This document shows positions 33,377-64,000 of a stretch of DNA of 64,000 nt, piece after piece (the first letter of the stretch is position 1; each line of letters opens with the position of its first letter). The translations under genes were made by a program, and so were the position numbers. Source of the stretch: a virus; the IMG/VR virus record IMGVR_UViG_3300047678_000239, positions 33,159-97,158 of that record, one strand, 5' to 3'. The notes under the pieces were generated by a model. It worked only from the letters and a program-made list of their open reading frames with translations, searched no databases and was not told the DNA's origin.

Positions 33377-33410
33377 ATATACTTCCTTCTATAAATATAA
33401 CGATTGTGAG

Positions 33411-39065: not shown

Positions 39066-39931
39066 TTATATATATTTGTGAGTTATTGGGTCTCGTTTAC
39101 GTCCTATTTGCCAAGAAGACATCTTGCAGCGTGTTTCTTCTGTTATGTTTTTCTTTGCTATAGACATTTTCGTCCGTGTTTCTTTAGACATTTTCTTTCC
39201 TCTCAAAGAATTTCCTATCTTCCTACGACATTCTTCAGTCAAAGACTTTCCAGTTTGAGCAATTGACATTCTTTTTTTGGTTTGTTCTGAAAATTTTCTG
39301 CCTGTATTGGCCAGGGATATTTTCCAATTGTATTTTGCTGTGAATCTAACGGCTCTGAGGATTCTCAAAGGGTCTTCACCAAAAATAACGTCGGGGTCTA
39401 AAGGAGTTCTGATAATTCCAGCCTTAATGTCTTCTTTACCCATTCCGGTTAAATCTAAAGTTTCTCCGGTTGTCAGGTCGTGGAGAAGACTGTTGGCGGT
39501 AAAATCTCTGCGCTTAACATCATCTTCGAGCTCGCCACCAGAAACCTCAGGCTTTCTACTTCCTGGTGTGTATTTTTCTTTTCTAGGAGCGACGGCTTCA
39601 ATGTCAATTTCACTCAAATCGTGACCTTTGTAATTGACTCCCTTTAAAGTAAATTTAGCAGTTCCGTATGTTGGATAAATTACAGGATTCGAACCTTCTT
39701 TGTAATTTCCAATTTCCTTCGCAGCCTATGTTGCAAAATTGATACCGGCATTTACGTCACCTTTGACAACCACATCCAAATCCTTTGGGTCAGCCCCAAG
39801 TTGCATGTCGCGGGTGCGCCGCCGGCCAGATAAACCTTTCCCTTGAAAGGACCTTTCTTGACTAAATCGGACAGAAATTCAAGAGCCACCTTATCACGTA
39901 AGGCTTCTTGAAGTATGCTTTTAAGTTTCAT
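39066..39931 (-). pseudogene. CCA-adding enzyme / poly(A) polymerase head domain, disrupted and fused to NUMOD3 repeats
   Basis: YLAGGA(P)RD...KDLDVV, DVKRRDFTANSL, DPLRILRAVRF; frameshift near 39812, in-frame TAG at 39726-39728; C-terminus replaced by SEQTKKRMS-type repeats. Confidence 0.8.
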
Positions 39932-40256: not shown

Positions 40257-40931
40257 TTATTGTTGTTTTTTCCACTGGTCGTATTCAGAGTGACATGCGA
40301 GGAAATCACCCGAATGAATGATGTATGGAAGATTTGTTCTCAGCTGTTGGTCAGGGTTGTATCCTTTGAGATAAAATGCATTCCCCTCATTGTAAAGACC
40401 ATCGGACAATTTGATTGCCAATGTTTCTTTCCAAGTCAACACGATTTGATGACGCTGAAGAACATACAAAGCGTTATCGGTGACTTCCCAAAATTGACAC
40501 TTTGGATTATGCTTGAACATTTCACCACGCTTGTCACGGGCCCAAGCTTCTGTTTGAGGAACGTAATATTCTCCATTTTCATTACCAAGTTTTCCGAGGT
40601 CATGGTGCAATGCTGCAAAAATACGCTCTTCTTCGGTGAAATCAACCGTTCCACCCATTGCTTCGTAAACCTTTTGACAACCCTTGGATGCTTTTTCAAC
40701 ATTTGCAATATGTTGCAGGTATCCGCCAATGTGAGCCAAATGGAAATGAACCTTACCAGCCGCTGGAGCGGTTGCGAGTCTGATTCCATATTTGTCTTCC
40801 GAATATAGGTCAAGCAACTTCGCTAGCCTATCTCCTTCAAATGTTTCTTTTAGAAACCCAATGAAGGTTTCGTAGTTCTCGCCAATTTCTTGTTCTGTAA
40901 GTTCAGAACCTTGGTGTAGTTTCATCGACAT
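40257..40931 (-). CDS. HD-domain phosphohydrolase
   Basis: TAPA...HLAHIGG..QH, ALHHDLGKLG, IHSGD. Confidence 0.8.
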   Translation of the reverse strand: MSMKLHQGSELTEQEIGENYETFIGFLKETFEGDRLAKLLDLYSEDKYGIRLATAPAAGKVHFHLAHIGGYLQHIANVEKASKGCQKVYEAMGGTVDFTEEERIFAALHHDLGKLGNENGEYYVPQTEAWARDKRGEMFKHNPKCQFWEVTDNALYVLQRHQIVLTWKETLAIKLSDGLYNEGNAFYLKGYNPDQQLRTNLPYIIHSGDFLACHSEYDQWKKQQ

Positions 40932-40965
40932 AAGATAAGACTACATAAGCGATTTTGAAAGTCAA
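40932..40965 (-). promoter_or_regulatory. sigma70-like promoter, leaderless arrangement
   Basis: TTGACT-N16-TAGTCT-N6-ATG. Confidence 0.6.
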
Positions 40966-40967
40966 CT

Positions 40968-42053
40968 TTATAATAAGACAGATACGCAATCAAGAGCACT
41001 TTTTATAACGTTGTGCATATCGTAGTATTTATATTCGGCAAGACGACCACCAAATATAACATTTTTATGAAGCTCTGCCTCTTTCTTATATTTCGATAAT
41101 ATCTCCATATTCTGTGCATCATTAACAGGATAATATGGTTCCGTTTTTCCGGCTACATATTCAATTGGAGTTTCCCAACTCACCCAAGTTGTATCTGTTT
41201 GAGCCTTTTCAAAATGTTTATGTTCTATGACTCTTGTATGTGAAACGTGTTTGTCAGTGTAATTTATTACTGCTACTCCCTGATAATTTGGAACTTCAAT
41301 ATGCTTGTGCTCCAACTTGACAGTTTTGTATTCGAGGTTTCCATATTTGTAATTGAAAAACTTATCGATTGGTCCAGTGTAGATAATCTTGTCATGTTCT
41401 GGCAGTTCCACATTGAAAAAATCGGTATTAGTTCTCACTTCAATTCCGTCGAGAAGTTTTTCAAATATTTTGGTATATCCCCCAATTGGAATTCCTTGAT
41501 ATTTGTCGTTGAAATAATTGTTATCGAACGTGTATCTTACAACCAACCTCTTTACGATTTCCTTCGGTAATTCAGTCGCTGGTTTTCTCCATTGTTTTTC
41601 CGTATAACCTTTGATAAGTCGGTAATATATGTCAGAGCCGACCATTTTGATTGCTTGTTCTTCAAGATTTTTTGGGTCTTCTATATGGAAAGATTGATTG
41701 GCGATGATAGCTTTCGCCTGCTCCTCTGTCTGGCATCCCCAAAGTTGATTGAATGTCCACATGTTAAATGGTAAAGAATAAATCTTATCACCAAACGATG
41801 CTAAGGGAGTATAGATGAAGTTATTAAACGAAGTATATTGGTTAATCCACGACCACACTTCCTCATTGGACGTATGGAATATGTGAGGTCCATACATGTG
41901 CAAGTTTATACCATTCCTCTCTTCCGTATAGCAGTTTCCAGCTATGTGTGGACGAGATTCTAAGACCAAGACCTTTTTGCCAGCCTTGTGAAGTTCGTGA
42001 GCACAGATGGAACCAAAAAAGCCGGCTCCTACAATAATATAATCATATTTCAT
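40968..42053 (-). CDS. glf: UDP-galactopyranose mutase
   Basis: IVGAGFFG, HMYGPHIFHT, YTEKQW, YFNDKYQGIP, EPYYPVN, GRLAEYKYYDM. Confidence 0.95.
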   Translation of the reverse strand: MKYDYIIVGAGFFGSICAHELHKAGKKVLVLESRPHIAGNCYTEERNGINLHMYGPHIFHTSNEEVWSWINQYTSFNNFIYTPLASFGDKIYSLPFNMWTFNQLWGCQTEEQAKAIIANQSFHIEDPKNLEEQAIKMVGSDIYYRLIKGYTEKQWRKPATELPKEIVKRLVVRYTFDNNYFNDKYQGIPIGGYTKIFEKLLDGIEVRTNTDFFNVELPEHDKIIYTGPIDKFFNYKYGNLEYKTVKLEHKHIEVPNYQGVAVINYTDKHVSHTRVIEHKHFEKAQTDTTWVSWETPIEYVAGKTEPYYPVNDAQNMEILSKYKKEAELHKNVIFGGRLAEYKYYDMHNVIKSALDCVSVLL

Positions 42054-43222
42054 TCAAACTGCTGTAGAAGATTTTCCCACATTCCCCCAATCTTGGGAAC
42101 ATTAAAACTGTCTATAACATACCTTGAAGCTTCATTTGATTTGGAATCTCTGAGAACCGTATCCTTTTCCAGCTCAACAATTTTCTTAACCAGTGGCTCC
42201 GATGTATTGAATCTTCCATCTTTTGTTAGTGGGGTGTTCTGTATGTCATTAATATCGGTTCCTTCCGGAAATTCACACCAATGACAATATTTCTCATAAT
42301 ACTCAGGAAGAGCGGCTATTGGATAAGTAACAACGTTTGTTTTCAATGCCAACGCTTCAGCTACAACACATGAAAATGTATCTTTATGAACATCGTTGTA
42401 TGGGGTGTAAAGCGGGTAGATGAAATATTCCGCTTCAGCTATATGTTTAAAAAGAGTTTGTTTATCAACTCCCATGTGCATGACAAAATATGGGTCTTTG
42501 TGGTCATGAATTGTCATGAGATAATCAAATGCATGAAACTCTGGATTGTCCCATTTCAAATCTCTTACCGTTTGGATTGCTACATTCCCACCTCTTGCCC
42601 AAGAAGCATGAAATACAACTTTATGTTTCTTTTTTGGAATTTGTTGAGAAAGAATATTTTCAATTTCATCAGTTAGTATTGGATTTGGAATCATCGTTTT
42701 GAATCCTTTTCCACCAACACCTTCAAAAATAGAATTCATGACTCCGAGGTTATTCTTCCTCTCCCATTCTGAAATGTTTACAAACGCAAGTTTCAGATTT
42801 TTTTCATTAACAAACTTTACTATTTCTCCAGAACCATATATCCATTGCATATGGCACCAATAAATCAAACCCTTAGTTACCGTTATTGGTAATTGAGAAT
42901 ACGCACTGAACCAAAGACTATTAACAAGAATGTCGAAGTTTCTATTTTCAATTCCATCAAAGTTAAAATTGGTGTAAGCCACTCCTCTTACTTTCTGTCC
43001 AGGAACAAACACTCGGCCCATACTTTCGTATTTGGCAAGTAGAGGCGGTTCCAGTGGGTCAACGGTTATAACAACATCGTGGCCCTTAGAAGCTAAATGC
43101 TCAGCAATCAATATTGTGCTTGTATCTGTTCCTGACGCTCCGGCTCCGCCGGTTCTAATGGTGTCTCCGTTTAGAAAATTACTGCGTCTGCTGTTTCCTA
43201 ATACGGTAAATGCAATTCTCAT
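42050..43222 (-). CDS. GT-B (GT4-like) glycosyltransferase
   Basis: GASGTD, LASKGHDV, IPNPI, DTFSCVVAEALA, ALPE. Confidence 0.75.
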   Translation of the reverse strand: MRIAFTVLGNSRRSNFLNGDTIRTGGAGASGTDTSTILIAEHLASKGHDVVITVDPLEPPLLAKYESMGRVFVPGQKVRGVAYTNFNFDGIENRNFDILVNSLWFSAYSQLPITVTKGLIYWCHMQWIYGSGEIVKFVNEKNLKLAFVNISEWERKNNLGVMNSIFEGVGGKGFKTMIPNPILTDEIENILSQQIPKKKHKVVFHASWARGGNVAIQTVRDLKWDNPEFHAFDYLMTIHDHKDPYFVMHMGVDKQTLFKHIAEAEYFIYPLYTPYNDVHKDTFSCVVAEALALKTNVVTYPIAALPEYYEKYCHWCEFPEGTDINDIQNTPLTKDGRFNTSEPLVKKIVELEKDTVLRDSKSNEASRYVIDSFNVPKIGGMWENLLQQFE

Positions 43223-44472
43223 AGTTTCTTTTCGTAGCGTTTAGACCAACCATTTTTAGTGCTGTATCCATACATGACAATTTTTGAAGGAGGCGTATCC
43301 GCTATAACATCTACCTCAACGGAATTTCTCGCATAGTTAAATATTTCTGGATGAGTCGATGGCTTGAAGTCTTCTCTAAATAAATTGGTTTCAAATTTAT
43401 CAACCACTCCAAAGGTTATGAATTCATAATCTCCAGTATCTTGTGATTTAAAAAATTCAACGTCCCAGTCAATTTTCATCTTTAATTTTTCTTTCTTGAA
43501 CTGTTCCTCCCAATCAATAGGATTTGGTGGTTCTCTAACCAACATAGTATAATCTTGAATTAAACATTTCTTGAAATCAAATCCACCAAAAACCTCATAA
43601 TCATGAACAGTTCTTTCTGTTCCCAATCCATAAGCTCCTAAATCAATTCCATAATCATCTTGTCCGAATAATTGGCGAGTTTTTTGTCTAGCAAAAATAT
43701 CTCTTTCGCCACTTGTCTTTTTGGTTTCACTCTTAATTCCGTGGTCTTCCCAATGTTTAGGACGATATTTTCTGGTGTATTCGTGCCACATTAACATTCG
43801 GTATGGACTGAAGAAATCATAACCCTTTGTATAAGCACGAATGCTCATTGTTGTTTCTTCTGTGTATCCTCCAAAATAAATGTCTGGGTCATATGGAACT
43901 TCATTGATAAAATTTCCTTCTACAAAATAGAAATGACCGCTGATTGTTCTAGCACGAATAACGTGTTTTCTTGTCTTAAAATCGGTAATATAAGCTGGTT
44001 TACTCATTAACAATTTGTCCGAGCTAAATTCGTATTGGGACATTAGTGTTGGCGTTTGCCCAGCTTTTTCCACCGGTTCTTTTGTATCAAACGGCGTGCA
44101 GTAAGTGGTTATCACTGGCTTCTTGGCCACCAACAATGCTTGTTGATAATCTTCCATCAACATAACATCCCAATTTTTAACAAATCGATGGTGGCTATCC
44201 AATTGCAATGTGTATTTTTCACCACGATATAATTTGTTGGTAACATTTCTCGCCCAACCCAAGCCTTGGCTTTGAGTATAGCTGTATTCTTCTACTCTAA
44301 CTCTTGGGTCGTTCGCAAATTCTTCAAGAGATTCAGTTTCATCTCTCTGCCAGCAAATTCCAAAAGTAAATCTTTCAGGATATTTCGCTTTGTCTAATAA
44401 ATCTCTAATCGTTGGAACGAGTTCTGGGTCTCGATACGATGCAATTTGAACAAATATTTTATCGTCAGTCAT
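43219..44472 (-). CDS. GT60-like polypeptide N-acetylglucosaminyltransferase (Skp1/mucin GlcNAc-T family)
   Basis: IFVQIASYRDPEL, GLGWARN, LQLDSHHRF (DxH), VPYDP..YF.GEE-like, WHEY. Confidence 0.8.
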   Translation of the reverse strand: MTDDKIFVQIASYRDPELVPTIRDLLDKAKYPERFTFGICWQRDETESLEEFANDPRVRVEEYSYTQSQGLGWARNVTNKLYRGEKYTLQLDSHHRFVKNWDVMLMEDYQQALLVAKKPVITTYCTPFDTKEPVEKAGQTPTLMSQYEFSSDKLLMSKPAYITDFKTRKHVIRARTISGHFYFVEGNFINEVPYDPDIYFGGYTEETTMSIRAYTKGYDFFSPYRMLMWHEYTRKYRPKHWEDHGIKSETKKTSGERDIFARQKTRQLFGQDDYGIDLGAYGLGTERTVHDYEVFGGFDFKKCLIQDYTMLVREPPNPIDWEEQFKKEKLKMKIDWDVEFFKSQDTGDYEFITFGVVDKFETNLFREDFKPSTHPEIFNYARNSVEVDVIADTPPSKIVMYGYSTKNGWSKRYEKKL

Positions 44473-44534
44473 AGTCTTTCCGTATATATAACGAAAAAAC
44501 GAATAATCCTACAATATAAATATGTTAAAATAAC

Positions 44535-46211
44535 TTAACAAGGTGTGCCAACTGTAGAAAGTGTGAGCGGTGCTCCGATACCGCCAGTGTATGTGATTGA
44601 AACATCTGATGGTAAACATCTGTCTTCTAAATAAGTTGTTGCATTGGTTGCTGGTGGAGAAACGTTTCTCGAAACCAATTCACTGCCGCTTGTTCCAGCT
44701 CCAACCGAAGACCAATTAAATGCCAATTCAATTGCTCCGTTTGAAACTGCTGCTCCCGTTTTCTTTCCATAGAAGCTATAAACTTGATATGGATATGATG
44801 TAGCACTGTAGGATGGATGTGTAAATCCTACTGAAATTGGGAGTATTTCAAGATACCCAATGTTGTTGATAGAAGGCGCGGAACCGACTCCATCATCAAC
44901 CGTTGTCATATTCTTTATTCCAGAAGAATCTGTGATTGTATTTGAATCAAAGTTATTTGAAGTATTCGTAGCATTGCGAATGTTGTAGTGATATTGAGAA
45001 CCATTTTGGATTCCTACTACACTCATGGACAATGCATTCGATGGGCTTATCAAACATTGACCAGCTCCAAATATGAATTTTCCTCCAGATACTCTTGTTA
45101 TAGATGCTGTGATTGTATTTGGAGTTAGAGAATCTGGGCAACTTACTATCAATGCAAAACGATTGTTTGCTATAGGCAACGTTAGGCTGTGATTTACAAT
45201 TGTTGCGCTTGTCACAGAAGTTGTCCACAAGTTAGAGTTTGCAACTATGTCTCTCAAGGTTATTGTTGCTGGGCGAGCGCCGTCAACCGTTGTAGCAGCT
45301 GTTAAGTCGATGAATAGAGATACATTTGATACAGCATTTGGTTGAACTATAACTTGTAAATCGTTGTTTCCGCCAGTTCTTGTATTTCCAGTCACCGAAG
45401 CATATGTGAATTCAAATGATGGTGATGGGTTTAAAACTGCAGTCGGCGTTATTACTATATTTGTGGCTGGCATCAAAATAGTATTAGGATTTGTGTTTGT
45501 TCCATTTTGTAGATAAAACACATCACCAGACCAAGCGTTGAAAGTGTATCCACCTGCTACACCAGCTCCAACAGAAACGTATGTTCCAGCAGGATATGCT
45601 CCAGTTCCATACGTAGATGTAATTCCCGCCTGACCACCATTTACAGCCAATGTGTATGTTGTAGGTGCAGGAGTTGGAGTAGGTGTTGGTGTAGGAGTAG
45701 GAGTAGCTCCACCTGGTGTTGGTGTAGGTGTTGGAGTGGCTGTTGGAGGAATTGGCGTAGGAGTAGGAGTAGGCGTAGGTGTTGGAACACTGCCAGCAAC
45801 TACATTCTGAGTATAATTCAAAGTTCCAATTCCGCCGGAGCCTGATACTATCAGTGTTGAGTATCCTGTTCCCTCTGTTCCATCATATGATGCCGTTATA
45901 TAGAATATAGAATCTGGTGGAATGGTTATTCTTGAATTATTGGCAATTGTCGATGGGTTTTTGAAAGAACTTCCTGCTGGGCCCGTGACGATATTCAAAT
46001 TTAGAGAAACGGAAAAATCCAAATTCGGATTATAAATTCCTCTTGCTTCTGAACCAGGAGTAAACTGAGCAAAATTAACTACGTTTGTTATCAGTCCACC
46101 GGATGACCAATAAATTGGCGAAGGTGTTGATGGAGATACCGCAGCTGGTATCGCTTGGAAATCACTTCCTATATCCCCAACCTCAACTAATCCAATGTAT
46201 TCGTTATTCAT
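44535..46211 (-). CDS. virion-type beta-rich protein with Pro-Thr linker and InlB B-repeat-like domain
   Basis: (PT)n; YTLAVNGG..GTGAYPAGTYV...GYTFNAWSGD. Confidence 0.65.
   Translation of the reverse strand: MNNEYIGLVEVGDIGSDFQAIPAAVSPSTPSPIYWSSGGLITNVVNFAQFTPGSEARGIYNPNLDFSVSLNLNIVTGPAGSSFKNPSTIANNSRITIPPDSIFYITASYDGTEGTGYSTLIVSGSGGIGTLNYTQNVVAGSVPTPTPTPTPTPIPPTATPTPTPTPGGATPTPTPTPTPTPAPTTYTLAVNGGQAGITSTYGTGAYPAGTYVSVGAGVAGGYTFNAWSGDVFYLQNGTNTNPNTILMPATNIVITPTAVLNPSPSFEFTYASVTGNTRTGGNNDLQVIVQPNAVSNVSLFIDLTAATTVDGARPATITLRDIVANSNLWTTSVTSATIVNHSLTLPIANNRFALIVSCPDSLTPNTITASITRVSGGKFIFGAGQCLISPSNALSMSVVGIQNGSQYHYNIRNATNTSNNFDSNTITDSSGIKNMTTVDDGVGSAPSINNIGYLEILPISVGFTHPSYSATSYPYQVYSFYGKKTGAAVSNGAIELAFNWSSVGAGTSGSELVSRNVSPPATNATTYLEDRCLPSDVSITYTGGIGAPLTLSTVGTPC
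45662..45788. repeat. 6-bp repeat encoding a Pro-Thr linker
   Basis: (GGNGTN)n. Confidence 0.9.
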
Positions 46212-46213
46212 AA

Positions 46214-47530
46214 TTAGTTACATAGTGATGGCCATGTATCGTGAATATTGATATAAGCAAACGCTTCAAAGTTATATCCAAGATTATCTGTAATTGTGCA
46301 AGAAATTGGGAATGTTCCGAAATCACCACATATAATGTCAACTGAGAACGTCGTTGTTGGGTTCGTTGGGTCGTCAGATGGAAATTCCCATAGATAAGTG
46401 TATGGAGCCGTTCCACCAAATGCTGTGACTGTGATTGGGTTTGTTGTAGCTCTACATACAGAACCGTGAGAATTGCAACCAACATTCGTTAATCCAGGAG
46501 CTATCGAACCAGACAAAGGTGGAGCGGTTGGTGTTGGAGTAGGAGTTGGAGTATCTGTTGGGGCAGGCGTAGGTGTAGGAGTTGGCGTAGACGGTATAGG
46601 AGTTGGCGTTGGTGTCGCCGTCGGAGGAACCGGAGTTGGTGTAGGCGTAGCGGTCGGCCCACCAGGCGTTGGTGTAGGCGTCGGCGTCGGCGTAACTGTT
46701 GGAGTCGAGGTCGGAGTTGGTGTTGGAGTAGCCGTTGGCCCAACTGGGGTCGGTGTAGGTGTAGGCGTAGGCGTTGGAGTGGTAGTTGGTGTAGGTGTTG
46801 GCGTAGGCGGCGGAGCGACCAACGAATATCCAGAAAACACCTTTTCTCCACCAGCCTTAAATACCGAATAATTATTTGTAGAATCCGACTGTAGATTAAA
46901 ATAATAATTTGGATTGTTTCCAGTTGGAGTTATCTGATTTGTTACATCAACAAATCTTCCTTTTCCTCTTCCATATGGGTTTGTATTATAAACCTTTAAA
47001 TACAATTTATCAGACGGACTAATTTTTCCAAATCCCTGAGCAGAGTCAAATGGAAGACCAAAACCACCAACTTTGGTAACGGTGATGGTCATTGTTATTT
47101 TCTCACTACTTCTAGCAGAACATCTGATAGTATGTATTCCAGCCGACAGAGATGGGGTGATAAATGAGCCAGAGCTTCCTGAATTTTGAGTCATTACGGT
47201 CACACCATTTAACTGGACAAGAAGTTCTTTTCCAGAACTGAATGTATTATTCTCACAAGATACTTCAACCCTAGCCACAGCAGTTCCTGATGGAATTCTG
47301 AATTTTAGTATTGGAGCATCTATCGCAGTGTCTCCAAACTGGCTATTTGCCGTAAATGAGACTTTTTCAAATATGAGTGTTTCCGCTGTTGGAATTCTAG
47401 TCCAACCAACATTTGTTCCTGAATCGCTGTTCTTTAAGAACGCGTGGCCACCATCTGTGGTGATTAAGTCTCCTTGAACACCGAAGATTTTGTTTTCTGG
47501 CTCATCATGTGTTGGTAATCCACGATTCAT
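46214..47530 (-). CDS. virion-type protein with long Pro-Thr linker and SprB/Ig-like C-terminus
   Basis: N-terminus paralogous to 47536..49821; about 95-aa PT linker; [10 protein letters not shown]. Confidence 0.65.
46520..46812. repeat. 6-bp repeat encoding a Pro-Thr linker
   Basis: (GGNGTN)n. Confidence 0.9.
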
Positions 47531-47535
47531 TTAAA

Positions 47536-49821
47536 TTATGGGGAGAATTGAGCGCCAGCTGTTTTATTACCATCTATGAAGATGGTTGTGGTCGAAGAAC
47601 CAGCATCTGTAATAGCGGATGAATTATTAACACCTGCTCCGGAAGAGCTCCAACTGTCGAAGAAGTCGAATCCATTGACCGCTGTAATTGTTGGGAACGT
47701 TCCAGCTGCTTTAGAGCCTCCACCGAATACACTACCATCTCCAGAAGCAGATGTTGAGAGTGTATAATTAGGTGTAGCTGGATTTGCTGGAGAATATGAT
47801 GAAACATCAATTTCTAAATCAGATTCACCTTCCGTTGACCTTCCGGCATAGAAAGTAGCTGATGTTCCTGATGGAACCACATTTGTCAACGCTGTTCCAT
47901 CTGGAGCTGCTCCGTCGAGGTCTATCCCATAAGAAAGGACATTTACAGACAATGGATTTGTCCAGCTCTTAGCATATCCTCCCATTGTATTATCAATAAC
48001 TGCGACATATGGAATTGTGCATCCACTTGGCATACCACTCAAGACGATGTTTGCATCGAATCCAGCTCCTCCACCAATCCAATTTCTTGCACCGTATCTC
48101 AATGAAGCATCATTGAATACACCAGGTCCAGACTTCGTAACAGTTGTTTTTGTGTTTGGATTTCCACTTCCAACACTAACATGCATTTGAATGTTGAATG
48201 AAGAACCATCCGTTACTTCGGATGTTGTTAAGTTAAATGTGAATGGACCATAACCGGACACATTTCTAATGATTGAACCATTCTTAGTCAAAGTGATGGT
48301 CATACTATTAATGAACACTCCACCAATTTGTCCAGCATCTTCAACAACAACTTGAACCGTTGTTGAGCCAGCTGTTCCGGTCAATATGAATCCAGGAGAA
48401 CAGGAGTTTGGATAACGTGGTAGATTTCCTCCAATATAGTTTGCACTTCCAAACAACCAACCATTGAATACGCCAGTTGTGTAAGAGAATGGTGGAATTG
48501 GCGTAGGAGTAGGTGTAGCCGTCGGCGGCGGCGGAGTTGGAGTAGGAGTTGGAGTAGGCGTAGGCGTAGGTGTAGCCGTTGGACCCGAAGGGGTTGGAGT
48601 AGGCGTAGGCGTAGGCGTAGAACCAATTGGAGTAGGTGTAGGCGTAGGCGTAGGCGGAATTGGTGTAGGCGTAGGAACAGCCGCGGCGTAAATGAACTGT
48701 TGATAATAACATGCTCCGATGCTCGATACCGCTGACAACACTCTTGGTAATCCTCCAGCAGTTCCAGAAGTTCCATTGTAACTCGATGTAACGTAAACAA
48801 AACTTCCTGCAGGAACCACTACTGAACCGGATGTTGGATTGAAAGTAATACTTGTTGGTCCACCAGCAACTGATAAATTAGCAATAGCAGCAAAATCAGT
48901 ATTACTATTAACCAATCGTGTTATAGAAGATGTAGCATAATTTTCGGTGAACGTATCCGAATACAAGCTCAAACCATTTGCCCATTTCAATGGTGTATAA
49001 GTGGCTGACTTCGATGTATAGACAGTTGGTGGTGTGGAGAAAGCGGTTGTATCTGTGAAATCAACAATTTCCAAGAAACCAATCGTATCACTTGTAAAGA
49101 CTCCAGCGGTTCTTCCTAAACAATTGATTTGTCCGCCGCCTATGAACGTAGCGTAATTGTTAACTCTATCTCCATTCAAATCATAAAAATATAGAGGATT
49201 TGTTGAATTCGGCATGGTGGAATTGGTCGCATCGTAGAATCTAGCCTTGCCGGTCGAAAATTGATTTGTATTATAAACCTGCAACAACATATCGTTGACA
49301 GAATTAATTTTAGCGTAACCTTGTGCGCTTGTGAATTGAGGACCAAAACCACCAACCTTGGTTATCGTAACTGTCAATGAAACTTTTTCGTCGCTTTGGC
49401 AACTTGTTCTAACTTGATGCCAACCTCCACCAAATTCAGAAGTTACAAATGATAGAGAAGAACCAGAAGTCGTTGTGATTGCTGACGCTGAATCAAATTG
49501 AACCCACAGCGGTCTAGCTGCGGTAAACTCGTAACCGGGTGTATTAACCACAACATCAACTTTGACGATTGCCGTTCCACTCAACAATCTGAAGCGTAGG
49601 TCAGATGAGTCAGCGGACGATGTTCCGTATTGAACGGTTGAAGTTAGGGACAAGCTCTCAAATTGGACAACCTCTGGAGAAGGAATTTCAGACCAACCGA
49701 TATTCAACGTGTCATTGAATTGCTTGATGTATGCTTTTCCTTCATCGGTGGAAATAACTGTTCCAATTGTTCCGAAAACATTACCTTCTGGTGAGCCGTG
49801 GCTTGGTAGTCCGTTTGTCAT
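47536..49821 (-). CDS. virion-type protein (putative fibre/decoration) with Pro-Thr linker and C-terminal B-repeat-like domain
   Basis: GSPEGNVFGTIG...AYIK...IGW; (PT)n; YTLSTSASGDGSV.GGG...FDSWS...GNKTAGAQF. Confidence 0.65.
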   Translation of the reverse strand: MTNGLPSHGSPEGNVFGTIGTVISTDEGKAYIKQFNDTLNIGWSEIPSPEVVQFESLSLTSTVQYGTSSADSSDLRFRLLSGTAIVKVDVVVNTPGYEFTAARPLWVQFDSASAITTTSGSSLSFVTSEFGGGWHQVRTSCQSDEKVSLTVTITKVGGFGPQFTSAQGYAKINSVNDMLLQVYNTNQFSTGKARFYDATNSTMPNSTNPLYFYDLNGDRVNNYATFIGGGQINCLGRTAGVFTSDTIGFLEIVDFTDTTAFSTPPTVYTSKSATYTPLKWANGLSLYSDTFTENYATSSITRLVNSNTDFAAIANLSVAGGPTSITFNPTSGSVVVPAGSFVYVTSSYNGTSGTAGGLPRVLSAVSSIGACYYQQFIYAAAVPTPTPIPPTPTPTPTPIGSTPTPTPTPTPSGPTATPTPTPTPTPTPTPPPPTATPTPTPIPPFSYTTGVFNGWLFGSANYIGGNLPRYPNSCSPGFILTGTAGSTTVQVVVEDAGQIGGVFINSMTITLTKNGSIIRNVSGYGPFTFNLTTSEVTDGSSFNIQMHVSVGSGNPNTKTTVTKSGPGVFNDASLRYGARNWIGGGAGFDANIVLSGMPSGCTIPYVAVIDNTMGGYAKSWTNPLSVNVLSYGIDLDGAAPDGTALTNVVPSGTSATFYAGRSTEGESDLEIDVSSYSPANPATPNYTLSTSASGDGSVFGGGSKAAGTFPTITAVNGFDFFDSWSSSGAGVNNSSAITDAGSSTTTIFIDGNKTAGAQFSP
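48491..48677. repeat. 6-bp repeat encoding a Pro-Thr linker
   Basis: (GGNGTN)n. Confidence 0.9.
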
Positions 49822-49822
49822 A

Positions 49823-51031
49823 TTAGTCTCTTATGTAACCTTGAAAATCAAACGAGCATACATTGTCTCCAGACATAGTTACGAATAGTGTTTTGTCAGC
49901 GTGAGCGTTTCCAAGGGTCAATAACTCCAATGTGTTGATTCCATAAGAAGCACTTACAGATGCAACGCGATTATTGAAGAATGACCCCGTTCCACTTGAG
50001 CCAGTTGATGGAGCTGTTGGAGAAGAACCTAACGATAGTAAAGGCTTTGCACTTGAAGAAACGACAGCCGAAGTCAAAACATAATTTCTTGGAAGAACAT
50101 CTCTTGCGGTTCCGTTACCGAGATAGCCAGAAGACGAAACAAAGAATCTTAAATTGAACTCTTTGCGAGGATTTGTTGCCAACGCTCCAGAAACAGGTAA
50201 TAACAAGTGATACCTTCCGCGAGAATCCAACCACTGAGAAGGTTCTGGATTTAAATTGGTTGGAATATAAGAAGCGAGCAATGTCGAATCGGCTTTTGGA
50301 CCTGAGAAGAATAATTCCAATGAACCCGATGGAGTCAATGCTCTCGACCAAATTTGGGCTTCGAAGATTGTGCAAGCAACATTGTTTGTTCCGCGAGATT
50401 GTCCCATTACAACGTAACTTGAACTGATTGCTCCAAGAGACGCTGATGGATTGGTTACTGAGGAGGCAACTGCTGAACCATTGATGAAAAAATAAGGATA
50501 ACCACCTGAGTTAACAAAAGTGATGTGCGTTGTCTTGTCCCAATATCCGTTGAAGAAATTTGGAATGGTTGCTGTCTTTGCAATGGTTCCGTCATTCATA
50601 TAACCAACAAGGTCGGAATTTACGATACCAATGTATGCTGAATTTCCTTGTTGAGCCGAAGTAACCGGACTTGGGCCAACACCAAAAATAACTCGGTGGC
50701 TAGAATCTGAAACGGAGTGTGAACTAGCAAACATTCCTCTTACAGAAAGAGAAAAATCTCCCGTTCCCAATGACCTAAACGGAGAATAACAAGTTAAATT
50801 GTTGGTGTTACCGACCACCGATTCATCGAACCAAAGACCGTTTGAGGTTTGATATGGAGAATAGCTCGGAGAGATTACGGATGCTAAATAAAGGCCGAGA
50901 TTTCCAGCGGTGATATGTTTCGTTTCTCCGGTTGGAGAAGTTGTTGCACTAACGTCAACAAACGGAATCATGTCGCCGGCTGCGACTTCGCTTGGTAGGA
51001 TATTATTTAGTCCGGTAGTTTTGGTATTCAT
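49823..51031 (-). CDS. virion-type protein with LamG/ConA-like domain
   Basis: GDMIPFVDVS..GETKHIT; LGTGDFSL; FINGS; IFEAQIWSRALT; late motif at 51063-51070. Confidence 0.6.
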   Translation of the reverse strand: MNTKTTGLNNILPSEVAAGDMIPFVDVSATTSPTGETKHITAGNLGLYLASVISPSYSPYQTSNGLWFDESVVGNTNNLTCYSPFRSLGTGDFSLSVRGMFASSHSVSDSSHRVIFGVGPSPVTSAQQGNSAYIGIVNSDLVGYMNDGTIAKTATIPNFFNGYWDKTTHITFVNSGGYPYFFINGSAVASSVTNPSASLGAISSSYVVMGQSRGTNNVACTIFEAQIWSRALTPSGSLELFFSGPKADSTLLASYIPTNLNPEPSQWLDSRGRYHLLLPVSGALATNPRKEFNLRFFVSSSGYLGNGTARDVLPRNYVLTSAVVSSSAKPLLSLGSSPTAPSTGSSGTGSFFNNRVASVSASYGINTLELLTLGNAHADKTLFVTMSGDNVCSFDFQGYIRD

Positions 51032-51074
51032 CTTGTCGAGCCTATGATTGGTATTTTACACCAATAAATATGGT

Positions 51075-51839
51075 TCAACTGAGCTTTTTCACCTTTTTTG
51101 TAATGAACCTAACCAGCTTACTTCTTACAATATCTTCCTCTGTAAATTCAAACGTATATATTCCATTCTCTCTACTTTCTTCGTCATTGAACAAATTATA
51201 AACGTCTTTGAAGCCGGAACGGTTAATGTCCGCTTGAGAGGGGTCACCCAACAAAAACAGCTTACTAAATTCTCCAACGCGTGTCATCAGTGTTATGAGC
51301 TCCTTCCTTGTGCAATTCTGCATTTCATCTCCAATGATTGCCATAGCATTCCAATTTAATCCTCTCAAATACCCCACCGGATGTGCTTCAATTCTCTCTT
51401 CATCGTTTAGTTTCTTTACATCTCCAGAAGAAAGAAATTCATCCAATTTATCAACAAGAGGCTGCCTGTATGGAGACATTTTATCATTTTTTTCTCCAGG
51501 TAAAAATCCAAGTTTAACATCACTGCTTTCAACAACGCTTCTGACATAAACAAGGTCACTAACTCTTTGTTTATTCATCAATAGCAGAGAAGCATAAACG
51601 GATAAGAATGTCTTCGACGTTCCTGCTGGGCCGGAGACTACCAACATCTTTACTTTGTTATCTAAAGCTAATTCAACAAACTCTTTTTGTCTTGGTGTAA
51701 GTTCTCGATTGAATATGTTGAGAGGAACTTGTAATTTTGAGTTTTGATGAATAACCGGTGTTTTGTCTACTTTCGCTACACCGGACTTATCTGACTGCGT
51801 TTTTTTCTGTTTTTTATTCTTACCTCGGTTTCTTGCCAT
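51075..51839 (-). CDS. phoH: PhoH-family ATPase
   Basis: GPAGTSKT, LGFLPG, YLRG, DEMQN, TRVG, GDPSQ.D, DIVRS. Confidence 0.9.
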   Translation of the reverse strand: MARNRGKNKKQKKTQSDKSGVAKVDKTPVIHQNSKLQVPLNIFNRELTPRQKEFVELALDNKVKMLVVSGPAGTSKTFLSVYASLLLMNKQRVSDLVYVRSVVESSDVKLGFLPGEKNDKMSPYRQPLVDKLDEFLSSGDVKKLNDEERIEAHPVGYLRGLNWNAMAIIGDEMQNCTRKELITLMTRVGEFSKLFLLGDPSQADINRSGFKDVYNLFNDEESRENGIYTFEFTEEDIVRSKLVRFITKKVKKLS

Positions 51840-52215: not shown

Positions 52216-52286
52216 TCTGTCTATAAATATCGAAAATTATCTCTTTAATCTGTTGATAATTAATTTTTGTGATTATACGTATAATA

Positions 52287-55263: not shown

Positions 55264-55335
55264 GTTATCTCTATAAATATTGTAAATCCTTACATTAGAG
55301 ACAATAAAACACTATCATTTTTATACCTCAAAATC

Positions 55336-59949: not shown

Positions 59950-60344
59950 AGATTTGAAGGTCGAAGAGTCGAAAATCTGGACAGGCAAAAGTGAATTTTT
60001 GGGATATAAGGGAAAGCCGATGTGCTTTCGTATATATAAAAAACTGGATAAAAATTCCAGGGCAAACACTAAAACAGGTGTCCACGACCCCCATAGGGCC
60101 TGGGGTCCCCCACTCAGAAGATGCCACCTAAACCCGGCCTAAACTGCCCCCTAACGAGGGGTCCAGATGCCCGTTTAAATGACGGTCCCACACCCCACGG
60201 CAGGGGGTGGCGTTCACCGCTTATACGGCCACAGTCCAGCAGCCCTTCGGCCATCATACCATGCCAACACACACAGACAAGCTGCGGCAATGGAATAGGA
60301 GATTGTGATTGACCAACCAATCCCTTTGTATAATAGTTCTTCGC

Positions 60345-60617
60345 TCACCATACATAAGTCTCCCAGAACCACTCCTTGTAACCGAAGTGCTTGCGACCAT
60401 AAGCATCAGCCTTCTTGCAGAAGCGCTTGACCTCGTTGGAATACTTCTTCAGCATCTTCTTTTGTTCATCGTATGACCATGAAGGTGTAGCGCGGTCAAT
60501 GTCATACGAATGGTCGGAGCGCCAGTTCAGTTCAATACGAACGGTGGCCTTCAGCGTGACGAAGCGATGGGTGAGAGCCTTGTGCTCCTTGAGGAGATTC
60601 TTTAATGTCTTGTCCAT
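60345..60617 (-). CDS. hypothetical early protein
   Basis: MDKTLKNLLKEH...; ATG 1 nt after the upstream stop. Confidence 0.6.
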   Translation of the reverse strand: MDKTLKNLLKEHKALTHRFVTLKATVRIELNWRSDHSYDIDRATPSWSYDEQKKMLKKYSNEVKRFCKKADAYGRKHFGYKEWFWETYVW

Positions 60618-60618
60618 G

Positions 60619-61062
60619 TTATGTAAAGTAGATTGCCGAAGGAGTGGGAGGAACGTCGCGGAAGCCGAGGTCAACTGTGGGGTATTGGTCGCGGAACTTC
60701 TCAATGAGACGATAGAAGTTCAGATGTAAGGGAGAGCGAAGGACGGGGCCGAAACAATACATGGTGTTCACATCGCCAGGCTTGGGCGTATAGGGCTGAT
60801 AATAAAGGTCATTGTCCCATTGACCATTTTGTAAATAGCCTTCGATACGCGGGATAAGAAGGTCAAGAGCCCATACCCCATTATAGAAAGTCTCCACATG
60901 CATCTTACCGTCAACGAAGACGACGAGTTGGAACTGCTTATTATGTTTCTCTGCGATGAACACCTTCGACTCATTGAAGCCGATGCAGTGATTCTTCAGA
61001 TACGCGATGACGTTCTTACGACTCGGTAAGCTCTTGGAATTCTGCTTGGGGAGGAGATTCAT
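60619..61062 (-). CDS. hypothetical early protein
   Basis: 147 aa directly after a promoter. Confidence 0.65.
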   Translation of the reverse strand: MNLLPKQNSKSLPSRKNVIAYLKNHCIGFNESKVFIAEKHNKQFQLVVFVDGKMHVETFYNGVWALDLLIPRIEGYLQNGQWDNDLYYQPYTPKPGDVNTMYCFGPVLRSPLHLNFYRLIEKFRDQYPTVDLGFRDVPPTPSAIYFT

Positions 61063-61097
61063 ATTGAAAGAATGGATTGACTAATTATAAATGTCAA
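61063..61097 (-). promoter_or_regulatory. early promoter TTGACA-TTTATAA type, leaderless
   Basis: TTGACA-N17-CATTCT-N6-ATG. Confidence 0.65.
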
Positions 61098-61104
61098 CTC
61101 ATTA

Positions 61105-61389
61105 TTAGCGTCCATAAACAGACTTTGTGAGGAAGGACATGGTTTGGTCAACATCGTTACGGAGGTCGGCGAGGACGTTGCACGTGTAGCGTTCGAGTGT
61201 ATCCTTGGACAGACCGAGCATAAAGTTCTTTATGTTGTTCTCGTTACGGTCAAGGTCATAAGACTCATTGAGGATACCGTGAATGCATTCGGCCTTGGAG
61301 GATTCATAAGAATCATACTCCAGCTCCATTTCCCAAAGGAGATGTTCTTTGAGGGCGCGGGGAAGTTGACTGAAGCAAATGTCGCTCAT
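61105..61389 (-). CDS. hypothetical early protein
   Basis: 94-aa ORF. Confidence 0.6.
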   Translation of the reverse strand: MSDICFSQLPRALKEHLLWEMELEYDSYESSKAECIHGILNESYDLDRNENNIKNFMLGLSKDTLERYTCNVLADLRNDVDQTMSFLTKSVYGR

Positions 61390-61395
61390 GTTATT

Positions 61396-61629
61396 TTAAA
61401 GCTTCGCCCACTTCTTGATGTAAATGGAGTTTCCGCCGGTGGTGCCGTCATCGTGACAGATAACATGGCCGGTGCAAGTCAGCCAATAGACGGTAGCGAC
61501 ATTATCGCCGAAAGGCGTCTTGTGCATAACGGTGTAATAGACTTTGCCTTCGAAGTCTCGTAGAGCGATAACCGTGCCTCGGGTGATAAAGGCGGAGACG
61601 GTCAGTAAAGGATGGCTGAATAGTTTCAT
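61396..61629 (-). CDS. hypothetical early protein
   Basis: 77-aa ORF. Confidence 0.6.
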   Translation of the reverse strand: MKLFSHPLLTVSAFITRGTVIALRDFEGKVYYTVMHKTPFGDNVATVYWLTCTGHVICHDDGTTGGNSIYIKKWAKL

Positions 61630-61632
61630 GTT

Positions 61633-61938
61633 TTAATAGGTTGAGCCACGCTGAGAGTCGAAATCTTCGTCACGCGTCAGCAACCGTGAACGGTTGGGGA
61701 TATTATAAACCTTGGCCCATTGAGTGTCGGCCAAGCGAAGGGTGCGGTCGAACGATTCAAAATCATCCTCTACCTTGAGGAAATGAAGAGCCGCCTTGTC
61801 GAGGACAGTGGCGAGGCTCCAAGCCCGATAGGACTTGAGACAGATGAAGAAGCGTTTCCACGACGCGACAGCCGCAATGTCATCACAGTGGAGTTTGCGA
61901 GTGTCGGAACCAAACCAAGCGGGGGAAGTTGCGTTCAT
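61633..61938 (-). CDS. hypothetical early protein
   Basis: 101-aa ORF. Confidence 0.55.
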   Translation of the reverse strand: MNATSPAWFGSDTRKLHCDDIAAVASWKRFFICLKSYRAWSLATVLDKAALHFLKVEDDFESFDRTLRLADTQWAKVYNIPNRSRLLTRDEDFDSQRGSTY

Positions 61939-62169
61939 AAAATTAGTCTCCGTGATGATATTACCACTGTCTTCCGGCAGTCCTTCCGACTTGGCGGTGA
62001 CAACTTAATTATAAATGTCAAGAGTATCGTGTGCCAATCATTACCCAAGTGAACCACAAAGGATGCTTGTCATCTGCGGGATTGTTCTTAGGATGGTCAT
62101 AGTAACCCAAGGGATTGTTGAGAAATCGTTGATAGAATCACGGAGAACGTAAATGGTTCGTTTAGCCAT

Positions 62170-62203
62170 GACCCTACAATGGAGGATATATTATAAAAGT
62201 CAA
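62170..62203 (-). promoter_or_regulatory. early promoter TTGACT-TTTATAA type, leaderless
   Basis: TTGACT-N16-CATTGT-N6-ATG. Confidence 0.65.
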
Positions 62204-62206
62204 GCC

Positions 62207-62374
62207 TTACTCTTCGCTCTGTAAGTCCTTGATATAGAACTCCATATCTTGACACCAATGAGTCAAGTGCTTCTTGACCTTACGGCTCACTTTCTTCTTG
62301 GCTTTGAGGCCCTTTCTTATAATCTCAACGACCTCCGCCAAATGCTCCTCAGGAACGTGTAGTGCTTTGGTCAT
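62207..62374 (-). CDS. small basic hypothetical protein (55 aa)
   Basis: Manual translation MTKALHVPEEHLAEVVEIIRKGLKAKKK... Confidence 0.6.
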   Translation of the reverse strand: MTKALHVPEEHLAEVVEIIRKGLKAKKKVSRKVKKHLTHWCQDMEFYIKDLQSEE

Positions 62375-62942
62375 TTATCGTTTGAAGTAAAGGACAACGG
62401 CAATGGTGACAACAAGAAGCACAATCCCACCAACGACCCAGCAAGTGACAATCCAAACAGAGGAGTCGTGAGCGTCAGCGGAATGGTCAACAACGCCATT
62501 GGCGTCTGTAGTATAAGTCTTGACGACATTGTTGGATGGTTCCACCGTTTGAGGAGCGGCGCCGGTTGCAGGAAGTTGATTATTTATAACCGTGGGGTCG
62601 GTTGGGAAGGACGAGTCACTTGCCAAAACATCCACCAATGCAACAGCGACGGAGACGAATCACGATAAATGACGGTTGGCTGACGAGGAGCGCTGTTGTA
62701 AATATTGGTGACGGAAGGCTTCGGCTTGGGCTTACTTGGAGTATTGTAAACCTTGGGAGGAGTGACCGGAGTATAAACCTTCGGGGTGAAAGGACGGCTT
62801 GGAGCCGGGCGAGGAGTGATACGAACCGGAACGTGAATGTGGGGAATTACACGAATCGGGGTGTGATGTGATGTGGTGTAACGTGGACTGCACCAAACGA
62901 AGTGGTCAACAGTGCCAAAAACAGCAGAATATACTTCTTCAT
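62375..62942 (-). pseudogene. Pro-rich exported, membrane-anchored protein with two apparent frameshifts
   Basis: Signal peptide MKKYILLFLALLTTSFGA; adding one C at the G4 runs near 62860 and 62595 restores a ~190-aa ORF ending in a TM helix + KR. Confidence 0.6.
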
Positions 62943-62943
62943 G

Positions 62944-63210
62944 TTAGAACTTGGTGTAATCCTCAAAATAGAGGAATGAGTTGCGGGTCAGGGCGCGGTC
63001 AGCGCTCTGGATTCCAGCCGCGTATATCGCGTCGTCGAGTTGGTTGAAAATGTGACGGGGTGAAGCGCCAGGGCTGCCGCCGACACATTGACAAAGACCA
63101 CGTAGAGCTTCGGCGTCTTTCTTGGTGAGGTCAAGCGTAATGCGAATGACCGGAGCGTTTTTGGGAGTGAGGCCAGTGGCCTTGACTTTGGAGGGTGAGG
63201 CGGATTTCAT
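62944..63210 (-). CDS. hypothetical early protein
   Basis: 88-aa ORF. Confidence 0.6.
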   Translation of the reverse strand: MKSASPSKVKATGLTPKNAPVIRITLDLTKKDAEALRGLCQCVGGSPGASPRHIFNQLDDAIYAAGIQSADRALTRNSFLYFEDYTKF

Positions 63211-63332
63211 ATTTTAAAGGTGAATTAGAGTGTAGATGGCGAGAGCGTGGACGAGATACTGATTCAGGTCTTTCTTGTCGAAGTTGGTGACGCCGGTGCC
63301 ACCACATGTCCAGTGATAATGATTGAGAGTTT

Positions 63333-63569
63333 TCATAGAGTTTCAGGGTAAGTGTAAAGATTGCCGTCACGATGTTCGTAGAGATAGACGGTGTATTTTC
63401 CGCCCATCGTCATGTCGTAATACTGTTCTGCGGTCACAGGCATTTCCTTGACACGCGGAGAAAGACCTTCATCTTCAAATCGCATGACGACAGTGAACTT
63501 AGTGCTGAACCAACCCTCTCGACGATTTTTGTCGATAACGGTAGCGGAGAATCCAAAACGGCGTGACAT
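63333..63569 (-). CDS. hypothetical early protein (OB-like beta pattern)
   Basis: ATVIDK...VTAEQYYDM..G..YTVY. Confidence 0.55.
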   Translation of the reverse strand: MSRRFGFSATVIDKNRREGWFSTKFTVVMRFEDEGLSPRVKEMPVTAEQYYDMTMGGKYTVYLYEHRDGNLYTYPETL

Positions 63570-63570
63570 G

Positions 63571-63792
63571 TTAAGCGGTGGCCGTCTCATGGACGGGCAT
63601 GGGAGAAGGACGCTGATTGAAGGTGGAGACGTTGGAGAACCACATTTCCCAATGGATGATACGAATGACCGTGAACGACTGCTTGTTCTTGCCCGTGCCC
63701 ATGTTCAGCTTGGAATAAGCGACGAGGAACAGCCACAGAAAGTAACAGCGGTAGGACTTCTCGAGGGTGAACGAAGCGTTGACAGATTTCAT
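63571..63792 (-). CDS. hypothetical early protein
   Basis: 73 aa directly after a promoter. Confidence 0.5.
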   Translation of the reverse strand: MKSVNASFTLEKSYRCYFLWLFLVAYSKLNMGTGKNKQSFTVIRIIHWEMWFSNVSTFNQRPSPMPVHETATA

Positions 63793-63826
63793 GGTCTTAG
63801 AGTGACAGTATTTTTATAAATGTCAA
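63793..63826 (-). promoter_or_regulatory. early promoter TTGACA-TTTATAA type, leaderless
   Basis: TTGACA-N16-CACTCT-N6-ATG. Confidence 0.65.
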
Positions 63827-63886
63827 GCCTTCACATCAAAGATACGACGAGTTCCCCAAGTGACAGGTCAATAGGTGGAATAGTGC

Positions 63887-64000
63887 TCATCGGCCATATC
63901 CCAGAGCGTAGTAAATGACGTAGAACCAACCAAACATGGCGTGAAGGATACACCACAGGATTGACTTGTTCACAGACCACGAAATGACAGCGGCAACAAT
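63887..64000 (-). CDS. small membrane protein, 5'-truncated by the window edge
   Basis: ...AAVISWSVNKSILWCILHAMFGWFYVIYYALGYGR*. Confidence 0.6.
   Translation of the reverse strand: MVAAVISWSVNKSILWCILHAMFGWFYVIYYALGYGR

Follow-up and report, generated by a model that had tools for sequence, protein, structure and literature searches.

A candidate phage-encoded protein O-glycosylation module beside Pro-Thr linker genes in an uncultured myophage

We analyzed a 64,000-nucleotide stretch of viral DNA, which we call the window (bases 33159-97158 of the 97-kb IMG/VR viral record IMGVR_UViG_3300047678_000239, with a CheckV completeness of about 45%). The subject is a block of seven genes that runs from a LamG-like gene through three genes with long Pro-Thr (PT) linkers to a GT60-like glycosyltransferase gene, a GT4-like glycosyltransferase gene and glf, and which may encode a system for glycosylating the phage's own proteins. 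The window also holds baseplate-wedge, primase and fused SbcCD genes, a 2199-residue fiber with an Mtd_N start, and phoH. The nearest cultured relative of the SbcCD is in Microcystis phage Mel-JY01 (37% identity), and because of this relative and the gene content we take the source to be an uncultured myophage with a genome of about 200 kb. The genes that matter here are, in window coordinates:

51075-51839, minus strand: PhoH gene, which bounds the module on its upstream side in related phages.
49823-51031, minus strand: LamG/concanavalin-like protein of 402 residues (PF13385), the first gene of the block, without a PT linker.
47536-49821, minus strand: modular protein of 761 residues with a PT linker at residues 379-449, a proposed acceptor.
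46214-47530, minus strand: protein of 438 residues with a PT linker at residues 235-340, a proposed acceptor.
44535-46211, minus strand: protein of 558 residues with a PT linker at residues 140-190, a proposed acceptor.
43219-44472, minus strand: GT60-like GT-A glycosyltransferase of 417 residues (PF11397), soluble, the proposed initiating polypeptide O-glycosyltransferase.
42050-43222, minus strand: GT4-like GT-B glycosyltransferase of 390 residues (assigned from a fold model), soluble, the proposed extending transferase.
40968-42053, minus strand: Glf, a UDP-galactopyranose mutase of 361 residues (PF03275), which would supply UDP-galactofuranose.
40257-40931, minus strand: conserved protein of 224 residues with an invariant HHDLGK (HD-like) motif, the downstream boundary of the module and our neutral anchor.
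3602-10201, minus strand: fiber of 2199 residues that begins like Mtd_N and has its PT linker at residues 2042-2104; it lies 34 kb from the enzymes and is the fourth candidate acceptor.

A preliminary description, made from the letters alone, had reported these seven genes as one co-oriented block, and all seven are where it placed them, on the minus strand throughout. The ATGA overlaps that it gave for the last three genes are both real, one at the junction of the GT60-like and GT4-like genes and one at the junction of the GT4-like gene and glf. The fourth PT linker that it saw in the giant fiber is present too, and the entire 97-kb record has no PT linker besides these four. We found no hydrophobic segment and no signal-like start in any of the enzymes or PT proteins (a control membrane protein nearby scores 2.67), and judged by their sequences all of them are soluble. 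When we inspected the block for an intrinsic terminator and a sigma-70 promoter, none stood out.

The product of 43219-44472 matches PF11397 with E 4e-62 and 211.1 bits, against a gathering cut-off of 21. We confirmed this match on the genome; it leaves out model positions 45 to 94. An alignment of 27 full-length homologues (33-74% identity) has D92-S93-H94, E206, R212 and H230 as invariant residues, and the protein has a conserved C-terminal beta domain at about residues 325-417. Only GT27 and GT60 have a DxH motif instead of DxD, and the known members of GT60 are all from prokaryotes and protists (PMC7185993). The AlphaFold (AF2) model has a predicted local distance difference test score (pLDDT) of 92.8. 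With Foldseek, the best 46 matches listed from the PDB were all polypeptide N-acetylgalactosamine (GalNAc) transferases. The top 29 entries from VIA-align were also all polypeptide GalNAc-transferases (ppGalNAc-Ts) of GT27, with Z-scores of 18.6-22.6 and a root mean square deviation of about 3.5 A over about 277 residues, and the next GT-A enzymes (GT2-type and others) had Z-scores of at most 17.5 over about 186-253 residues. The nearest BFVD models are proteins named "Glycosyltransferase, GlcNAc" (N-acetylglucosamine) from uncultured tailed phages and giant viruses. HMMER searches of the PDB sequences, with the single protein and with a profile, gave no meaningful match for either transferase. 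By sequence and predicted fold, the lead enzyme is a true GT-A enzyme of the PF11397/GT60 type, in line with the GT60-like label of the preliminary description.

The GT27 enzymes are the nearest solved structures, and they share with the enzyme here the DxH motif, a later His, and a two-part build with the catalytic domain first and an accessory domain at the C-terminus. The sequence identity, however, is 13-17%, and the ppGalNAc-Ts are type-II membrane proteins of the Golgi with a ricin-type lectin domain, whereas the enzyme here is predicted to be soluble and ends in the beta domain described above. The protist GT60 enzymes (the Trypanosoma cruzi mucin enzyme, the Dictyostelium Golgi enzyme and the cytoplasmic Gnt1) belong to the same Pfam family, have the GT-A fold and use DxH rather than DxD. 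Gnt1, which acts on a hydroxyproline of Skp1, resembles our enzyme further in being soluble and cytoplasmic. In T. cruzi, O-glycans on Thr-rich mucin repeats are initiated by the GT60 enzyme, and in some strains galactofuranose is then added to that GlcNAc, a parallel to the pairing of GT60 and Glf here. Unlike the protist enzymes, the one in the window is phage-encoded, has the extra C-terminal beta domain and is missing the Pfam positions 45-94.

Close homologues of the GT60-like protein are abundant in metagenomes, with more than 6000 found on contigs of up to 293 kb, and the family comes to 4397 clusters at 50% identity. Many of the best family representatives (P0121-P0136) are giant proteins of 800-2461 residues that have 2-4 tandem copies of the domain.

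It had been suggested in the preliminary description that the co-occurrence of GT60 and PT-linker genes be examined across phages. When we compared the 10-kb region by megablast with 50,697 phage records, there was no match. A PF11397 profile scan of IMG/VR gave at least 590 contigs, from which we fetched 80 loci; the counts below cover 83 viral loci. In close relatives (72-76% identity), the PT protein is followed by GT60 and GT4 and then, in some cases after one or two further transferases, by Glf. There is a PT linker in the gene directly upstream of the glycosyltransferase in 23 of 81 loci (28%) and in the next gene up in 13 of 76 (17%), while the other positions out to ten genes have one in 0-9%. 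Once the PT tract is masked, the PT neighbors fall into 15 homology groups, 10 of which are singletons. We also counted each gene family once: PT families make up 27 of 156 within two genes of the transferase versus 15 of 458 further away (odds ratio 6.2, p 4e-8), and the result is similar for proteins of at least 250 residues.

For a neutral set of loci, we used the HD-like gene that flanks the module. A scan with the single HD-like sequence found no relatives, while an alignment-based scan did, and we fetched 75 loci in this way (L321-L395). A set anchored on SbcCD contained only fragments, and it was left out of the co-occurrence counts. Among the 75 HD-anchored loci, 14 had both the transferase and a PT gene, 20 had the transferase without a PT gene, none had a PT gene without the transferase, and 41 had neither (p 2.5e-6). 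In this set, PT genes occur only with the transferase, and the transferase also occurs without a nearby PT gene. This is the direction we would expect if the linkers need the enzyme and if the enzyme also serves distant substrates, such as the fiber in the window, which is 34 kb away.

The whole interval from phoH to the HD-like gene is held by 45 of these loci. The transferase is present in 12 of them, and 9 of those 12 have PT genes; one of the three that do not has a PTS-rich tract just below our threshold. The remaining 33 intervals have neither the transferase nor a PT gene and have mostly shrunk to one small gene. Because the LamG, PT and glycosyltransferase genes are present or absent together in this interval, we consider them to be one accessory module. 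The interval itself (window 40932-51074) is a hot spot for accessory DNA: most relatives have 0.5-3 kb with 1-6 small genes there, five have an unrelated ten-gene block of about 8.7 kb, and twelve have the LamG/PT/GT module.

The reverse test started from the linkers. Out of 68 IMG/VR records that were picked solely for a (PT)6 DNA pattern, 11 carry PF11397, including all five that are at least 100 kb long, and several of the positive records have a PT gene within a few genes of the transferase. For comparison, the known frequency of the family in IMG/VR is, as a minimum, about 590 contigs in 2.9 million. In two related large records, of 279 kb and 133 kb, both the transferase family and PT tracts are missing. 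Full-length homologues with 34-43% identity are also common on bacterial chromosomes (Acidobacteriaceae, Verrucomicrobia, Alphaproteobacteria and others), and 9 of 388 of these have a PT gene within three genes, compared with 0 of 310 at 4-6 genes. The association between the transferase and PT genes is weaker in bacteria than in phages.

The LamG-like protein that opens the block is a borderline case, as its match to Laminin_G_3 (PF13385) has E 4.8e-6 and 27.2 bits against a cut-off of 27.6. Homologues with 38-74% identity stand before the PT genes and the transferase in related loci. The PT linkers themselves are 71 residues long in the 761-residue protein (window 48475-48687; 25 Thr and 30 Pro), 106 in the 438-residue protein (46511-46828; 41 Thr and 43 Pro), 51 in the 558-residue protein (45642-45794) and 63 in the 2199-residue fiber (3890-4078), where the linker is near the end of the protein. 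The DNA that encodes the linkers consists of imperfect repeats (66-86% matching), so the tracts do not come from recent slippage.

The linkers join domains that are related to each other. The 761-residue protein has a beta-rich N-terminal part, then the linker, and then a distal part that ends in an InlB B-repeat-like domain. The N-terminal 230 residues of the 438-residue protein are 42% identical to the 761-residue protein, and residues 6-142 of the 558-residue protein resemble residues 247-382 of the 761-residue protein, with the PT linker and an InlB B-repeat-like domain (E 6.6e-8) following. The 438-residue protein ends in a SprB/PKD-like domain that shares 42% identity with the end domain of the giant fiber, and in both proteins this domain comes directly after the PT linker. 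The domains after the linkers are thus of adhesin types, SprB/PKD-like and InlB B-repeat-like. Together, the 438- and 558-residue proteins repeat parts of the 761-residue protein (the N-terminal 230 residues and residues 247-382), and the pair looks like a duplicated gene that was split by an inserted cassette of a PT linker plus an Ig-like domain. Structure matches in the ESM Atlas gave only weak Ig-like similarity, with template modeling (TM) scores of at most 0.31.

The composition of these proteins bears on where the sugar would go. Ser and Thr make up 25-26% of the PT proteins and 43% of the giant fiber, and GT60 includes the Skp1 hydroxyproline GlcNAc-transferase, so the enzyme might act on hydroxyproline in the Skp1 manner, on Ser/Thr outside the linkers such as in the fiber shaft, or on a host protein, with the PT linkers as bystanders. 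The 20 of 34 transferase-positive HD-anchored loci that have no PT gene within 10 kb fit such a target as well. We think it improbable, because the association is specific to PT tracts. In addition, the 97-kb record, at about 45% completeness, has no prolyl-hydroxylase-type PF13640 protein.

The second transferase is harder to place by profile. It had been called GT4-like, and for the product of 42050-43222 the scores against PF13692 (18.8 bits, cut-off 27) and PF13439 (17.3 bits, cut-off 28.5) are below the cut-offs, with GT4/GT1 matches at E 2e-3 and 5e-3, so the GT4/Glycos_transf_1 profiles do not establish the family. It does match PHROG 2170, "glycosyltransferase", with E 3.5e-7. What upholds the assignment is the fold: the model (pLDDT 92.3, predicted TM score 0.92) has the two Rossmann domains of the GT-B fold, and its best structural matches are PimA (2gej, TM 0.65), tll1591, MshA, BshA, PglA and WaaG. 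GT4 enzymes have an E-x7-E motif in the C-terminal domain. Where it would be expected, the protein has an invariant D281-x7-E289, a conservative variant whose placement we judged by eye.

Glf matches PF03275 with E 2.1e-72 over 202 of 203 profile positions and NAD_binding_8, the FAD-binding N-terminus, with E 8.6e-21, and it is 55% identical to an annotated Glf; the earlier identification holds. The preliminary description had also noticed that no obvious galactofuranose (Galf) transferase was in the window, and our search of the 97-kb record agrees in finding no GT2; DUF4422 was also not found, but that search is uninformative because no control genome matched. The window and its nearest relative have only the GT60-like and GT4-like transferases. 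With two transferases and no GT2, UDP-Galf could be used by one of these two, its transferase gene could be in the missing half of the genome, or UDP-Galf could have another purpose. Some relatives carry extra genes between the GT4-like gene and glf (L005 12423-13922, L006 4497-6016, L007 11245-13098), which by their N-terminal motifs, judged by eye, are GT25-like and GT11-like, and one relative has the GT4-like gene fused to an extra domain (617 residues). From these inserted and fused transferase genes, the glycan has probably diversified between close phages.

The sugar genes raise a different explanation, which is that the enzymes remodel the envelope of the host. Their target would be a glycan of the infected cell, either lipid-linked or on the surface (lipopolysaccharide (LPS) O-antigen, capsule or S-layer glycan), and the change could block superinfection or keep released virions from sticking. 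The enzymes would adjoin fiber genes only because fiber regions collect accessory genes. GT4-type enzymes, Glf and the relatives' GT25-like and GT11-like genes (by eye) are typical of O-antigen and capsule pathways, and the GT4-like model has WaaG, PglA and PimA among its best structural matches. It also fits that the module is an accessory insert and that 44 of the 83 GT60 loci have no PT gene within three genes. We nevertheless consider envelope remodeling unlikely. The lead enzyme is nearest to the protein-modifying GT27 family and not to the polysaccharide GT2 family, and the operon has no membrane anchor, flippase, polymerase or initiating phosphotransferase. PT-linker genes are enriched beside the transferase across 15 groups without detectable mutual homology, they never occur without it in the HD-anchored loci, and records selected solely for PT DNA are strongly enriched for it. 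Envelope remodeling leaves unexplained why the transferase tracks PT tracts in particular.

Another use of Glf with transferases is in DNA hypermodification, where hydroxylated pyrimidines are glycosylated. In the Rhizobium phage RL38J1, Glf and GT-B transferases are assigned to a galactose-glucose decoration of 5-hydroxycytosine (PMC13326640, 2026). The two systems are alike in having a phage Glf (43.5% identical to the one here) together with GT-B transferases, and the GT-B enzymes of that paper match the same PDB entries (2gej, 7fg9, 3c4q, 3mbo) as our GT4-like model. Glf is also present in 90 cultured phage records. We find a DNA target highly improbable for the window, though. RL38J1 has a 5-hydroxy-dCMP synthase, while here there is no ThyA-like synthase and no nucleotide kinase. 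Neither a ThyA (PF00303) nor a ThyX (PF02511) homologue is in the 97-kb record, about 45% complete as it is, so a source of the required hydroxylated base is missing, and two GT60-positive genomes with 100% completeness (297 kb and 197 kb) likewise lack PF00303. The cassette lies among fiber-like genes and not nucleotide-metabolism genes, its lead enzyme has a GT-A fold like that of GT27, and a tblastn search with the GT4-like protein had no match in the 50,697 phage records.

Experimental work by others on a cultured phage bears on a protein target. Homologues of the GT60-like transferase occur in only four of the 50,697 phage records, all of them jumbo phages of Xanthomonas or Stenotrophomonas. 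In one of these, XacN1, the homologue ORF334 aligns over 99% of the query with 34% identity, and (PT)4 tracts are present in five open reading frames (ORFs), namely ORF232, ORF236, ORF237, ORF384 and ORF325. The positions of ORF325 and ORF334 are:

AP018399.1 203370-213311: XacN1 ORF325, 3313 residues, directly after the baseplate wedge genes, with a PT tract near the C-terminus.
AP018399.1 222135-223508: XacN1 ORF334, GT60-like, 9 kb from ORF325 and followed by a carbamoyltransferase.

The tract of ORF325 is near the C-terminus, like the linker of the 2199-residue fiber here. XacN1 virions have at least two Schiff-stained glycoproteins, and the authors suggested phage glycosyltransferases as the makers; the stained bands carry no assigned protein, and the authors made no link to ORF334 in particular (PMC5852040). 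XacN1 differs in being of another phage lineage with another host, and in having a carbamoyltransferase and a GT9-like gene, rather than GT4 and Glf, as the neighbors of ORF334.

Virion glycosylation by phages as such is already known. Mycobacteriophage virions, as PMC12619734 relates in citing Freeman et al. 2023, have glycans at the C-termini of capsid and tail-tube subunits. As far as that account goes, mycobacteriophages and chlorovirus PBCV-1 resemble the system proposed here in that virus-encoded glycosyltransferases decorate the virus's own structural proteins in the host cytoplasm, with shielding as the proposed benefit. Compared with the mycobacteriophages as described there, the acceptors that we propose are internal Pro-Thr linkers of fiber-like proteins, and the initiator is GT60-like. 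A search of the full-text literature found no paper that links GT60/PF11397 to phage PT linkers.

The regulation of the block needs a correction. The octamer at 44515-44522 that had been described as a late-type motif is indeed a recurring word, but TATAAATA is its plus-strand form only; on the minus strand, where the genes are, the word at 44516-44523 is ATATTTAT(A). The sites are:

44516-44523, minus strand: ATATTTAT(A) motif, 43 nucleotides (nt) 5' of the GT60-like gene; the earlier motif on its correct strand.
51064-51071, minus strand: ATATTTAT motif, 32 nt 5' of the LamG-like start codon; a candidate phage promoter for the fiber-like block.
3183-3190, 11824-11831, 21046-21053, 23732-23739, 33391-33398, 52223-52230 and 55273-55280: examples of other ATATTTAT(A) sites.

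There are 16 copies of ATATTTAT(A) in the window where 4.3 are expected, 15 of the 16 are on the gene strand, and copies lie about 3-43 nt 5' of the start codons of tail, fiber and other genes. Several copies are only 3-8 nt from the start codon, so that transcripts from them would be leaderless or nearly so. We rejected a late promoter of the T4 type, because the word on the gene strand is the reverse complement of TATAAATA, which is the T4 late promoter word. With one copy before the LamG-like gene and another before the GT60-like gene, the two blocks probably share regulation, and we infer that the motif may be a late signal.

Two other observations concern the rest of the window. The G+C content is 0.48-0.49 at 60001-64000, compared with about 0.38 elsewhere in the window. 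A 183-residue ORF at 39066-39617 on the minus strand joins the C-terminal part of a PolyA_pol/tRNA nucleotidyltransferase head to a NUMOD3 homing-endonuclease motif. At the same position, judged by position only, relatives have an ORF of about 430 residues (L004 12335-13627, L006 7985-9286). Given this fusion and the longer ORFs of the relatives, the CCA-enzyme gene here may be split by a mobile endonuclease.

Taken together, we favor the explanation that the block is a phage-encoded cytoplasmic protein O-glycosylation module that is gained or lost as a unit between phoH and the HD-like gene, and we put the probability of this at roughly 55%. Late in infection, the two ATATTTAT copies would drive the fiber-like genes and the three-enzyme operon. 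The soluble GT60-like enzyme, predicted to be a retaining, metal-dependent GT-A enzyme with DxH, would put the first sugar from a UDP-sugar on threonines of the Pro-Thr linkers. By family precedent this sugar would be an N-acetylhexosamine, probably alpha-GlcNAc. The GT4-like GT-B enzyme may then add a second sugar, and Glf would make the UDP-galactofuranose donor. The glycosylated linkers would connect anchoring domains with adhesin-like ones in the phage's modular proteins, the distant 2199-residue fiber among them, and would become mucin-like stalks, extended and stiff, that are masked antigenically and resistant to proteases. What our data show is the set of genes, the folds and conserved catalytic motifs of the products, their solubility, and the tendency of the enzyme family and PT genes to occur together; from these we infer all of the steps of the mechanism. 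The preliminary description had read the block as an O-glycosylation cassette in a similar way; the enzyme class, the solubility, the GT-PT association and the XacN1 glycoproteins speak for that reading, and its late-promoter detail did not hold up.

A number of points weigh against this explanation. Besides the 44 loci without a close PT gene, a GT-positive genome that is 97% complete (G004) has no strict (PT)4 tract, and five complete phages of 36-80 kb have PT tracts without the transferase family. Shared ancestry inflates the counts and overstates their independence, which the family-collapsed and anchored tests lessen but do not remove. PHROGs and Pfam have no structural phage family that matches the LamG or PT proteins, and ten PT neighbors from other loci likewise had no structural annotation in them (one LamG match, one VWA match and one PHROG of unknown function came up). 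A virion location of the three PT proteins is suggested by their adhesin-type domains, the gene context and the end domain shared with the Mtd_N-type fiber. On the side of the sugars, there is the absence of a GT2 in the record, three related loci have GT60 and GT4 without glf within 10 kb, and LPS and capsule pathways, too, routinely contain Glf and enzymes of the GT4, GT25-like and GT11-like kinds. We know of no measured glycan, acceptor or donor for any prokaryotic or phage member of GT60.

The association also allows a wider claim, that PF11397/GT60 enzymes are dedicated Pro-Thr linker glycosyltransferases across phages and bacteria (Acidobacteriota, Verrucomicrobiota and Alphaproteobacteria) and so form a cytoplasmic mucin-type system. 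We offer this one tentatively, at somewhat less than even odds.

To our knowledge, only a few actinobacteriophages have experimental proof of glycosylated virions, and the prokaryotic and viral enzymes of the GT60 type, which number in the thousands, have no known function. A test is already within reach, since XacN1 grows in culture and its virion proteomics data are public (PXD008065). If it is true, this would be the first function for a GT60 enzyme outside the protists, and the eukaryotic mucin initiators, GT27 and GT60, would share a prokaryotic or viral root. The soluble enzyme and its linker would be a portable enzyme-and-tag pair for bacterial glycoengineering. Many of the "unstructured" PT linkers of environmental phage fibers would be glycan-coated stalks, and widespread large aquatic phages would be making mucin-like stalks on their appendages, which would bear on adsorption, on protease and antibody resistance, on the stickiness of particles in water, and on the design of particles for phage display and therapy.

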